This document shows, piece by piece, positions 13,921-23,075 of a stretch of 64,000 nt of DNA. This DNA is from Escherichia phage vB_Eco_ZCEC15, in sequence record PQ871103.1. One strand, 5' to 3'. The notes below the pieces were generated by a model, which was not told where the DNA came from, made no database searches, and saw only the letters and a list, made by a program, of their open reading frames with translations. The translations under genes and the position numbers were made by a program. How positions within the stretch are numbered: position 1 is the stretch's first letter; each line of letters opens with the position of its first letter.

Positions 13921-14337
13921 TTAAATGTAAATATTTTTGCCGTAATACTTATACCAGTGTGGCTTCATTAAAATTTTTTCATCGAGTCGTTGTTGACTCA
14001 ACTTAATAGCTGATTTGCATGGATTATAATCATTTTTCCATTCTACTGGAATATCGCTGATGTCAGGAACTTCAGTATCTTTTATACTGAACCCGCGTTT
14101 TAAGCATTCCGTTATAATGTCCGATTGACGCTTTCGCAAAAATTCTAACTTATCATAAAAGAACGTAACATGACCAGAACCTAAAATAAACTCGGAAGAT
14201 ATTTTAAAATCTTTAACCCGCTTACCATTTGCTACATGTTTACGAACTATACCAAAAACACGCGGCAATTCACGGTATTCTGCGATTAAATGTTGATCAG
14301 CAAGTTCAGATACTAAAGTCAAATTAATACGAGTCAT
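13921..14337 (-). CDS. denV: endonuclease V (pyrimidine dimer DNA glycosylase)
   Basis: 138 aa; [17 protein letters not shown]...[11 protein letters not shown] matches T4 DenV; early promoter and GGAGG RBS upstream. Confidence 0.95.
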
Positions 14338-14396: not shown

Positions 14397-14927
<531 letters not shown>

Positions 14928-18263: not shown

Positions 18264-18527
18264 TTATTTCATATTATTGAAATATTCTTCTGCGATTTCG
18301 TCGTTATCATGGTAAACTTTAGAAGACAGTTTAACATAACCTTCTGCTGTGAACATATTAATCACAACTTTTACAGTATACCACTGACCGTCTTCATTAC
18401 CCATTACTGCGTAAGTTTCAAACATCGGATGATCAGGACCGATAACTTTAATATCATTCACTGTACGACCGAAATCTTCTGAAACGCATTTCATAAAGAA
18501 GTTGAACAGTTCGCCGTAATTATCCAT
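18264..18527 (-). CDS. hypothetical protein (~87 aa)
   Basis: Start adjusted to ATG 18525-18527 after GGAG; the track's extra N-terminal codons are the promoter -10 read in frame. Confidence 0.5.
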   Translation of the reverse strand: MDNYGELFNFFMKCVSEDFGRTVNDIKVIGPDHPMFETYAVMGNEDGQWYTVKVVINMFTAEGYVKLSSKVYHDNDEIAEEYFNNMK

Positions 18528-18571: not shown

Positions 18572-18601
18572 ATAGTACCATGGAAGAACAGGGATGTAAA
18601 C
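18572..18601 (-). promoter_or_regulatory. T4-type early promoter
   Basis: GTTTAC-N18-TACTAT; exact 22-mer repeat copy. Confidence 0.6.
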
Positions 18602-18735
18602 AGTTTTGTGAAAAAAATTTTTAAAAAGTTTTAGGGAATTCTAGGGTCAGGAGGGACAATTAAAAGGTAGGATAATATATTATAAAGGGTATAAACTAAA
18701 TGATGCCTAGAGAGACAAGGAAAGGCCTAGATACC

Positions 18736-18763
18736 AAAAAGCCCCAACCTTTTGGTCGGGGCT
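18736..18763 (-). terminator. rho-independent terminator after internal-protein-like gene
   Basis: Hairpin AGCCCCGACC-AAAA-GGTTGGGGCT plus U-run; near-identical copy at 19271-19298. Confidence 0.7.
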
Positions 18764-18770
18764 AAGAATG

Positions 18771-19232
18771 TTATTTGATTTGTTTAGCAGACCAAATGCG
18801 GTCTTTGATGATTTTTTGGAGGTCTTCAACATACTCTAGGTCATGAGCATGTGGATTATCTTTGAAACTATGAGCTCGCGCAAGTTTCTGGCCTTCGGTC
18901 TTAATTATCAAAAGTTCTTTAAGAATTGCTTCATACCTAGAGATAATTCCTTTAGCAATATTTTTTTCTTGTGCTGCTTTAGGGTCAGCCTTAGGAGCAG
19001 GTTTACCAGAAGGTTTTTCGAAAGCCGCGCCAGTAGCAACCAGGCTTTTCCAGGCGGTGGTAACATAGTTACCCACAAAGCCTTCAGCTCTCATATCGTC
19101 GTAGAACTTGTACCGAGATTCGTCAGAAGCATCTTTATAAGAATATTTACCAGCTTTAATAGCAGCAGTTGCTACAGCGCGAACATCTGAAGCGGATGCT
19201 TCGGTCATTAAAAATTGAGCATAAGTTTTCAT
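18771..19232 (-). CDS. internal-protein-like capsid-targeted protein (153 aa)
   Basis: N-terminus MKTYAQFLMTE resembles the T4 capsid targeting sequence MKTYQEFIAE; late promoter TATAAATA and AGGAAA RBS upstream; own terminator. Confidence 0.65.
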   Translation of the reverse strand: MKTYAQFLMTEASASDVRAVATAAIKAGKYSYKDASDESRYKFYDDMRAEGFVGNYVTTAWKSLVATGAAFEKPSGKPAPKADPKAAQEKNIAKGIISRYEAILKELLIIKTEGQKLARAHSFKDNPHAHDLEYVEDLQKIIKDRIWSAKQIK

Positions 19233-19260
19233 TGTTATTTCCTGTGTTAATTAACTCATC

Positions 19261-19268
19261 TATTTATA
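19261..19268 (-). promoter_or_regulatory. late promoter (TATAAATA)
   Basis: Exact TATAAATA on minus strand 30 nt upstream of internal-protein-like gene. Confidence 0.55.
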
Positions 19269-19270
19269 CT

Positions 19271-19298
19271 AAAAAGCCCCAACCTTTCGGTCGGGGCT
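19271..19298 (-). terminator. rho-independent terminator after tRNA/small-RNA cluster
   Basis: Hairpin AGCCCCGACC-GAAA-GGTTGGGGCT plus UUUUU. Confidence 0.7.
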
Positions 19299-19612
19299 AA
19301 GCCTTGCGGCAACCTTGTCGGGGTTCCACCTGCTAAGGCAAGTGTTTGTACGAAACGCCGGGATTCGAACCCGGTTATTAAGTAGTTGACGCTACTCAAT
19401 ATTTTTAAAAGGCCATATCTCGACCATATCCGAACGTTCCGTCAAAAACGCTACTCGGCTTACGGCAAAGATATTTCCTCGAATCGATAATTCGGTGCGC
19501 CGTTTCTGCTGTGATGTAAGAGGGCATCAATAAACGTGAAGATTATTAACGCAATTCCTTACTCAGGGAACATCAGTCCGACGACTTACCGGTAGCGACC
19601 CGGTTTCTTGTT
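19299..19612 (-). ncRNA. small stable RNA region (T4 species 1/2 RNA position, rnaC/rnaD-like)
   Basis: ~310 nt non-coding between tRNA-Arg and a terminator; contains tRNA-like T-arm CCGGGTTCGAATCCCGG (plus 19358-19375); individual boundaries not resolved. Confidence 0.4.
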
Positions 19613-19692: not shown

Positions 19693-20358
19693 TTAAAATT
19701 TCATTTTTCTACCTTTAAACCATCCTTCTGGAATTGGGTCAGTTTTCTTAATACGTTTAGAAACTTTTTCATCTAATGAATGAATCCACATCATACCAAA
19801 TTGGGAATTCTTTTCACCTTGTTGGTGTTTATTTTTGGCGTGAGATTCTTTCATTTTATTAATAGTTTCAGGAGTATGATGCTTATTTAAAAATCTGCTA
19901 TTATTTAAAAATTTTTCCCTGTATTCAGGAGTTGACCACAAACGTTTAAATACATTTGAACCATGTTTACGATATTTTTCTTGAAGTAAAATATCATTTT
20001 TAAAACGTGACTTAAACGATTTAGCTCCTTTTAAACTAGCGTCTTTCTTCTGATTTAGCATCTCAGGAATATTTATATGGTCCCATCCACCTTCACCACC
20101 AAGTTTTAAATTATACACATCTGGTCTATTTAAAAACTCTTCTGTGACAATATTTTTCTCGGCTTCAAGCATAGATTCTTTATCATCAAAATACTCTAAT
20201 ATTTCTTTAGAGAAATTTTCTATACCATACTTGTCTTGGGCTCTTTTTAATAATTTACCAGAACCCATATATCCATCATCTAAATTTTCGGTAGAATGCA
20301 CACCAATATAAATTTTATTATTAATTTTATTTGTTATTTTATAAGTGTAATGGAACAT
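19693..20358 (-). CDS. segB: GIY-YIG homing endonuclease
   Basis: 221 aa; N-terminal YTYKITNKINNKIYIGVHS...GYMGSG GIY-YIG motif; located inside the tRNA cluster as T4 segB. Confidence 0.85.
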   Translation of the reverse strand: MFHYTYKITNKINNKIYIGVHSTENLDDGYMGSGKLLKRAQDKYGIENFSKEILEYFDDKESMLEAEKNIVTEEFLNRPDVYNLKLGGEGGWDHINIPEMLNQKKDASLKGAKSFKSRFKNDILLQEKYRKHGSNVFKRLWSTPEYREKFLNNSRFLNKHHTPETINKMKESHAKNKHQQGEKNSQFGMMWIHSLDEKVSKRIKKTDPIPEGWFKGRKMKF

Positions 20359-22507: not shown

Positions 22508-22741
22508 TTATTTTTTACGAAAAATTGATTTATTTTCTGCTGCCCATTTTTCAATAACTGCAGCAGGACCAGTAACAACAATTTTATCACCGTAATCTTC
22601 TGCGGCGAGTTGACCGAAATTATCTAATGCATCACGAAGAACTCCATGAGGCATTTCACCCATTTTATCTTTCTTGCCAGTGTAAATAAACTCAACTTTT
22701 ACATCAGCAGTTTCAGCAATAAATTCTTGGTAAGTTTTCAT
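22508..22741 (-). CDS. internal protein (capsid-targeted), ~77 aa
   Basis: Starts MKTYQEFIAE, the T4 capsid targeting sequence as recalled; start adjusted to second ATG; own early promoter. Confidence 0.7.
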   Translation of the reverse strand: MKTYQEFIAETADVKVEFIYTGKKDKMGEMPHGVLRDALDNFGQLAAEDYGDKIVVTGPAAVIEKWAAENKSIFRKK

Positions 22742-22817: not shown

Positions 22818-23075
22818 TTATTTTAAATCTTCTAATCGTTTCTTCATCTTAGAACCATTTTTAGCAATTTCTCCTGCATCGGAGCATAATGCTAAAAGTG
22901 CTTTAACTTTAGTTTGGTCTCCTTTAAAAGATGAAGGATCGACCGCAGCAGCAAGTTCTTTAATACGAGAGAAAAGACGCTCAGCTTCAGCTAAAGCCAT
23001 TCCAAGCTTTACTTCCATACCGTGGGAAGATTCAGTGATAGTAGTTTTTGTAGCAAACTCTTTGAAAGTTTTCAT
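22818..23075 (-). CDS. internal protein (capsid-targeted), 85 aa
   Basis: Starts MKTFKEFATK (CTS-like); own early promoter; ipI position next to 57B. Confidence 0.65.
   Translation of the reverse strand: MKTFKEFATKTTITESSHGMEVKLGMALAEAERLFSRIKELAAAVDPSSFKGDQTKVKALLALCSDAGEIAKNGSKMKKRLEDLK

Follow-up and report, generated by a model that had tools for sequence, protein, structure and literature searches.

The window (the whole stretch of DNA that was analysed, 64,000 nucleotides from Escherichia phage vB_Eco_ZCEC15) comes from a T4-like phage. Over the region described here, its identity amounts to 99.8% with Escherichia phage VEc20 and to about 98% with RB27 and with G8. The gene under study occupies positions 18771..19232 on the minus strand, between rnaC and gene e.8, and codes for a protein of 153 aa that begins with MKTYAQFLMTEASASDV. 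This protein is a member of phrog_2280, a family annotated as being of "unknown function". Nearly all database copies are labelled "hypothetical protein", while one copy from a Klebsiella phage carries the name "Internal head protein". By tblastn, the gene was detected in 511 phage records and is full length in 469 of these. Judged by its sequence evolution, the ORF is a real gene under selection; pairwise dN/dS values for eight alleles range from 0.06 to 0.22.

All neighbouring features described here are encoded on the same strand. On the upstream side there is a tRNA cluster (20968-20400), followed by segB (20358-19693), a tRNA-Arg gene (19689-19613) directly 5′ of rnaD, and then rnaD (19494-19612) and rnaC (19349-19487). 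The latter two were placed via homology to the T4 and RB27 annotation; a search of Rfam 15, which contains models for neither of the two RNAs, returned tRNAs only and gave no match to the region 19349-19612 even at E <= 0.01. The segB gene, which codes for a GIY-YIG homing endonuclease of the SegB type, is located between tRNA-Arg and tRNA-Met (19693-20358), as in T4, while tRNA-Asn and tRNA-Tyr take its place in RB27, the named phage that is most closely related with respect to the studied gene. The downstream neighbour is e.8 (18264-18527), which has an early-type promoter (TTTACA-N17-TACTAT, 18572-18600).

The gene is bracketed by two intrinsic terminators. The upstream one (19271..19301, minus strand; stem 19275-19298, GAAA loop, U5 tail) is found 47 nt 3′ of rnaC, at the end of the tRNA-rnaD-rnaC transcription unit, while the downstream one (18736..18766, minus strand) has its stem at 18740-18763 with an AAAA loop and, again, a U5 tail. 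When read on the minus strand, both are hairpins with a GC-rich 10-bp stem and a tetraloop, both are terminator-like by scan, and the two copies fold with -24.9 and -19.7 kcal/mol (z = -5.0 and -3.8). The original prediction had described these flanking terminators as nearly identical, and its coordinates proved to be accurate within one base. Upon alignment of the flanks, they turned out to be part of a direct repeat of 36 nt (18731-18766 versus 19266-19301) with an identity of 94% and a spacing of 535 bp. The 31-nt hairpin motif occurs in just these two copies (18736-18766 and 19271-19301); allowing for up to 3 mismatches, the 64 kb contain no further copy, and 100 shuffles yielded none. Concerted evolution of the hairpin pair was considered and rejected as inconsistent: the same stem variant is found twice in the window, in RB27 and in SHSML-52-1, but not in BYEP02 or in loci L013 and L018.

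A late promoter, TATAAATA, is located directly behind the upstream hairpin (19261..19268 on the minus strand; read directly as TATTTATA on the plus strand). It represents the exact late-promoter consensus, overlaps the last bases of the repeat (GTAT), and its end lies 28 nt 5′ of the ATG. A Shine-Dalgarno sequence, AGGAAA (19238..19243, minus strand), is positioned 5 nt before the start codon. The gene thus has the late promoter and ribosome binding site of its own that had been read from the sequence at the outset. In 13 loci, as well as in Mineola and MHG19, TATAAATA (in a few cases AATAAATA) directly follows the hairpin, and AGGAAA is kept in all loci compared, so that hairpin, T-run, late promoter, and Shine-Dalgarno sequence are kept across four lineages. 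As it is insulated by a strong terminator and equipped with a consensus late promoter, the gene should be made only late, and this would fit a prohead component: late expression, as predicted from the conserved promoter, would match the time of prohead assembly.

This arrangement differs from that of the classical ip genes. Early-type promoters (GTTTAC...N17...TAnnAT) with embedded AT-rich stem-loops lie upstream of T4 ipI, ipII, and ipIII and also of the two Ip genes, Ip5 and Ip6, that are found in the window, and exact TATAAATA is absent within 110 nt upstream of any of them. The pattern agrees with the published description of the classical ip loci, which lists early-type promoters together with stem-loops (PMC2839356). 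The studied gene has a canonical late promoter and a GC-rich terminator instead.

The N-terminus of the protein, MKTYAQFLMTE (codons 1-11; 19200..19232, minus strand), had been noticed for its resemblance to the T4 capsid targeting sequence (CTS), and the match holds at those residues which are experimentally important. A review of Black's work (PMC9026906) states that ten residues from the start of IPIII are enough to direct packaging, with residues 4 and 7 responsible for targeting and residues 8 and 10 for processing. The window protein shares Tyr4, Phe7, and Leu8 with the T4 CTS and continues with Met9-Thr10-Glu11/Ala12 (the slash marks the site of cleavage), cleavage by gp21 being presumed to occur after Glu11. 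For comparison, T4 IpII and IpIII start with MKTYQEFIAE/A and T4 IpI starts with MKTFKEFTSTTTPVSTITE/A. Generally, T-even Ip proteins have a propeptide of 10-19 residues, of the form MKT[YF]x[EQ]F[IL]..E, which is followed by Ala or Ser, as is the case here. Tyr4 and Phe7 are invariant or conservatively replaced across all homologues of the studied protein.

Such tags are rare and confined to a few places. A six-frame translation of the 64 kb contains the motif MK[TS][YF]xxF exactly 3 times, always at the start of an ORF, the other two ORFs being Ip5 and Ip6. With a looser motif, which was applied to ORFs of at least 40 aa from a set of 14 genomes (T4, T2, T6, PST, Mineola, the window, and eight IMG/VR contigs), tagged ORFs were found only near vs.8/denV/e, in the e.8-to-tRNA gap, and in the trna.4-to-57B gap. 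Ip6 (22508-22741, MKTYQEFIAE/T) and Ip5 (22818-23075, MKTFKEFATKTTITE/S) are situated at the classical ipI locus of the window, as in T6 and PST. At the other classical position, denV (13921-14337) directly abuts the lysozyme gene e (14397-14891), and the phage is devoid of ipII and ipIII, unlike T4; other relatives have one to three tagged genes around denV. A replacement of ipII/ipIII by the studied gene could be ruled out, as tagged genes occur at each of the three places in G8 and in others.

The prohead protease gp21 cuts after the Glu of an L/I-X-E motif (PMC9026906). Most alleles of the studied gene and all of its cross-genus homologues have canonical cleavage sites (LNE, LTE, or LAE), and most alleles even have a double site (FLNE..VLNE/A). 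Propeptides found in alleles and distant homologues, with mostly canonical L-x-E sites, include MKSYAQFLNEVVLNE/A, MKTYNEFLNESVLTE/A, and MKSYAEFLTE/Q, and further MKFKEFLAE/A in Klebsiella phage Mineola and MLNFNEFLAE/S in Yersinia phage MHG19. The window allele deviates from this pattern and from the Ip cleavage sites: its M-T-E/A site has Met at P3 where the gp21 motif has Leu or Ile, and Glu is found at position 11, not 10. For these two reasons it is uncertain if this allele is processed by gp21. However, the FLMTE/A propeptide recurs in a lineage which is only 73% identical (P0004/P0006), and the Met-P3 variant is thus not a sporadic error.

We consider it likely (with a probability of roughly 0.7) that the studied gene codes for a CTS-tagged internal head protein which is packaged. 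It might instead code for a late, unpackaged cytoplasmic protein with a CTS-like N-terminus that is a recombination leftover from ip genes and has no targeting function. The non-canonical M-T-E motif of the window allele and a regulation unlike that of the canonical ip loci would be compatible with such a protein, and our literature search, in which no virion proteomics, N-terminal sequencing, or genetics was found for any member of the family, provided no proteomic report of packaging. On the other hand, the propeptide and the canonical L-x-E/A/S/Q are kept in homologues from other genera down to about 35% identity, while the adjoining mature N-terminus diverges. The CTS segment has a dN/dS of 0.18, which argues against a functionless leftover, and foreign proteins can be packaged in T4 by ten CTS residues alone (PMC9026906, PMC3012670). 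We therefore regard an unpackaged protein as improbable.

The mature part of the protein would have 142 aa, a mass of 15.7 kDa, and a pI of 9.4, which is similar to the values for T4 IPI*, IPII*, and IPIII* (pI 9.0-9.65). An AlphaFold2 model (pLDDT 73) consists of a disordered propeptide, a three-helix domain, a Lys/Pro/Ala-rich linker, and a long helical hairpin. The small three-helix domain was assigned to residues 12-71 (19020..19199, minus strand; modelled for residues 14-67 with pLDDT 83-88) and the linker, which has a low predicted confidence, to residues 72-90 (18963..19019, minus strand). The helical hairpin was assigned to residues 91-153 (18774..18962, minus strand), while in the model it extends over residues 84-150.

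The two domains differ in their conservation. It is the N-terminal domain which is conserved across genera, with about 55-60% identity among phages of E. coli, Klebsiella, and Yersinia, and with the pattern AGKYSYKD.SDESRFQF..DM.AEGF kept between genera. The C-terminal hairpin has diverged strongly in Jiaodavirus and MHG19 but hardly varies within Tequatrovirus and Mosigvirus, where, conversely, the N-terminal domain is the faster evolving one (dN 0.22, compared to 0.03 for the C-terminal domain).

Database searches with the studied protein gave 0 hits for Pfam, nothing meaningful for NCBIfam, and 0 hits for PADLOC, while a profile search against the PDB returned only noise (E > 0.5). Fold comparison of the mature protein did not reveal an informative match or a structural analogue. 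Sequence homology to Ip1-3 was not found past the CTS. Identity with IpIV from PST and T2, which at 157 aa has the same length as some alleles of the studied protein, could be ruled out, these proteins being unrelated past the CTS.

The studied gene and the T-even ip genes have several characteristics in common. The encoded proteins are small, basic, and non-essential, the presence of the genes varies between close relatives, and the genes reside in a gap between transcription units where they are flanked by stem-loops. They differ in that the studied protein has no sequence similarity to T-even Ip proteins past the propeptide and is conserved more widely across genera than most Ips, and in that its gene is located in the e.8-to-rnaC gap rather than in the denV/e region or in the trna.4-to-57B gap. 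Just two Ip loci are described in the literature surveyed (PMC2839356; PMC12373910, which refers to "the two Ip loci"). In our literature search we did not encounter a paper that names the studied gene or its ORF names. However, the lists of more than 30 IP variants (Repoila 1994, Comeau 2007, the latter as cited for this number) might already include the family. The studied gene would occupy an Ip locus beyond these two, and it may have been recognized earlier among these variants.

For the function of the mature protein, the T4 proteins provide the obvious analogy. Ip1, Ip2, and Ip3 were recently shown to be injected and to inhibit GmrSD type IV restriction enzymes, with a different enzyme as the target of each protein (PMC12373910, Silas et al. 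2025). By this analogy, the studied protein, if it is packaged, has about an even chance of acting against host defence; taken overall, that it disarms a host defence on arrival is a tentative proposal to which we assign somewhat less than even odds. DNA handling in the head or at ejection is the main rival to this anti-defence role. The protein could be packaged to condense, organise, or escort the DNA, or to participate in core assembly like IPIII, rather than to inhibit a defence system. Several observations are in line with a role of this kind: the protein is basic (pI 9.4) with a Lys/Pro/Ala-rich linker, its N-terminal domain is kept across genera that have different hosts, dN/dS is about 0.1 overall and 0.04 in the C-terminal domain, and head-assembly aberrations are known from IPIII mutants (PMC9026906). 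Conservation across genera together with strong purifying selection is less reminiscent of an arms race, and a structural or DNA-handling role fits it equally well. However, the gene is dispensable in nature, being absent from T4, T2, T6, and PST and occurring in frameshifted or truncated copies. Also, IPIII was likewise once thought to be structural and yet is a specific GmrSD inhibitor (PMC12373910). We rate a role restricted to the head or to ejection as unlikely, though more credible than an unpackaged protein.

In T4, the e.8-to-rnaC gap has only 284 bp and contains one hairpin but no ORF. T2, T6, and PST have the same junction with a single hairpin and lack the gene. That T4 has no internal-protein gene at this position, as had been noted at the outset, is thus correct, and the same applies to these three phages. 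Nevertheless, the gene is not rare. It is present in about 60% of the T-even-type records that match the region (about 452-469 of approximately 690-770), and its carriers amount to approximately 470-510 sequenced T4-like phages. Universal conservation and an already assigned function would both have spoken against the original prediction; with about 60% carriers and with phrog_2280 being unannotated, neither was found upon comparison of the locus in relatives.

Beyond Tequatrovirus, three further lineages have the gene at the corresponding position, directly preceded by a GC-rich hairpin, a T-run, and (A/T)ATAAATA: Mosigvirus SHSML-52-1, Jiaodavirus Mineola, and Yersinia phage MHG19, where it sits just after the tRNAs of this phage. 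In Mineola, MHG19, and the IMG/VR contigs L012, L016, and L017, the two terminators around the gene are not copies of each other. The number of hairpin copies tracks the occupancy of the gap, with one copy if it is empty, two in gene-bearing Tequatrovirus, and three in BYEP02. In this latter case (1296-1398 of locus L005), an 81-bp tandem duplication of the rnaC-downstream tail together with the hairpin has led to three copies around the gene, and we take this as a sign of ongoing recombination at the hairpin element.

In 165 records, among them RB14, ime09, HP3, and Nami, a second tagged gene is located between the studied gene and e.8 (769-1332 in Nami, L004). The encoded protein has 187 aa, starts with MKTYAEFLTE/AAKLPSE, is present at 95-100% identity in the 165 records, and its gene has its own, different terminator. 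It is "hypothetical" in the records listed, while some sources, implausibly, call it an "isopenicillin N synthase-like dioxygenase". Full-length matches to phrog_2280 (E-values from 1e-48 to 1e-59) were obtained for the window protein, the second gene of Nami and RB14, Mineola gp134, and the MHG19 homologue; in the pairwise comparison, the similarity between the window protein and its 187-aa neighbour is confined to the propeptide. With empty, single-gene, and 165 double-gene records, the e.8-to-rnaC gap thus holds 0, 1, or 2 tagged genes. Two database proteins combine part of the studied protein with sequence from elsewhere: P0009 has a trna.3-like N-terminal part which is followed by the last 32 residues of the studied protein, while P0010 has the first mature residues of the studied protein and a NudE-like C-terminal part. 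These look like natural deletion recombinants from which the tRNA cluster or genes e.2-e.8 have been removed.

It had been proposed that the gene is a cassette which was inserted by recombination at a terminator. Part of this proposal stands, as the direct repeat marks the exact boundaries of the present/absent polymorphism. An insertion, however, is disfavoured by the syntenic position of the homologues in Mosigvirus, Jiaodavirus, and MHG19. As these homologues also share the hairpin and TATAAATA, the gene is most likely ancestral, to judge from the comparison of genomes, and has been lost in T4-type genomes by deletion between the direct repeats; it may have been re-inserted in some lineages. 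GGGC/GCCC-type motifs are present in the hairpin stems, and according to earlier work, as cited by Arbiol et al. 2010 (PMC2839356), about half of the spontaneous deletions in T4 involved GGGC/GCCC motifs.

A recent mobile cassette which has been inserted at the rnaC terminator would also account for some of the observations. The gene is flanked by 36-bp direct repeats and the empty site of T4 is precise and single-copy, the same gap can hold a second tagged gene, the additional tandem hairpin of BYEP02 points to local recombination activity, and shuffling of PeSL cassettes, which are bounded by a promoter and a stem-loop, is known from T4-type genomes (PMC2839356). However, an identical empty site is also expected from a deletion between direct repeats, and the duplication is not needed for residence, since several lineages have the gene between two unrelated hairpins. 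The same gene with the same hairpin and late promoter at the same place in Mosigvirus, Jiaodavirus, and MHG19 argues against a recent insertion, which we thus consider rather unlikely.

The comparison to PeSL cassettes (Arbiol et al. 2010; Comeau et al. 2014) is nevertheless instructive. In both cases a single small accessory gene is found between repeated stem-loop elements, and the break points of the indels are within the repeats, which here are the 36-nt repeats and the single-copy site of T4, T2, T6, and PST. While PeSLs consist of an early promoter and a stem-loop, the repeat described here is an intrinsic terminator with a tail that overlaps a late promoter. Also, PeSLs are dispersed through hyperplastic regions, whereas this repeat has only 2 copies in 64 kb.

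From sequence features and from the analogy to the T4 proteins we infer packaging, cleavage, injection, and anti-defence activity, and the following course of events is proposed for the preferred reading of a packaged protein encoded by an ancestral gene. The upstream hairpin would halt early and middle transcripts of the tRNA-rnaD-rnaC unit, and TATAAATA behind it would drive late transcription of the studied gene alone, with the second hairpin ending the late transcript ahead of the early promoter of e.8. By means of the propeptide MKTYAQFLMTE, the protein would dock into the prohead's scaffolding core, and gp21 would then remove this propeptide after Glu11. The basic 15.7-kDa mature protein would stay with the packaged DNA and would be injected alongside. 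In analogy to Ip1, Ip2, and Ip3, its most likely task on arrival would be to counteract a host defence directed at the incoming DNA. The 36-bp repeats would make the gene excisable, recombination between them leading to the single-hairpin empty site of T4, T2, T6, and PST.

A more far-reaching scenario, which we consider speculative, is that of an old third Ip locus. According to this, phrog_2280 proteins would have two domains, would be injected, and would have a role other than GmrSD inhibition, directed against another first-response defence or serving the protection or escort of DNA in E. coli, Klebsiella, and Yersinia hosts, and the repeat would be a recombination module for the gain, loss, and stacking of tagged genes.

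Work on Ip proteins has so far centred on two loci which were defined in T2, T4, and T6. Most other T4-like phages have one or two extra tagged genes at a site where T2, T4, and T6 have probably lost theirs, and the studied locus corrects the view that T-even genomes have no IP genes elsewhere. If the gene is indeed ancestral, the e.8-to-rnaC site is older than the divergence of several Tevenvirinae genera. The gene adds to the candidates for injected effectors, just as the T4 Ip proteins have been established as anti-restriction effectors, and RB27_136, RB14 ORF136, and Mineola gp134 are candidates for host-range work and for the choice of strains in phage therapy.
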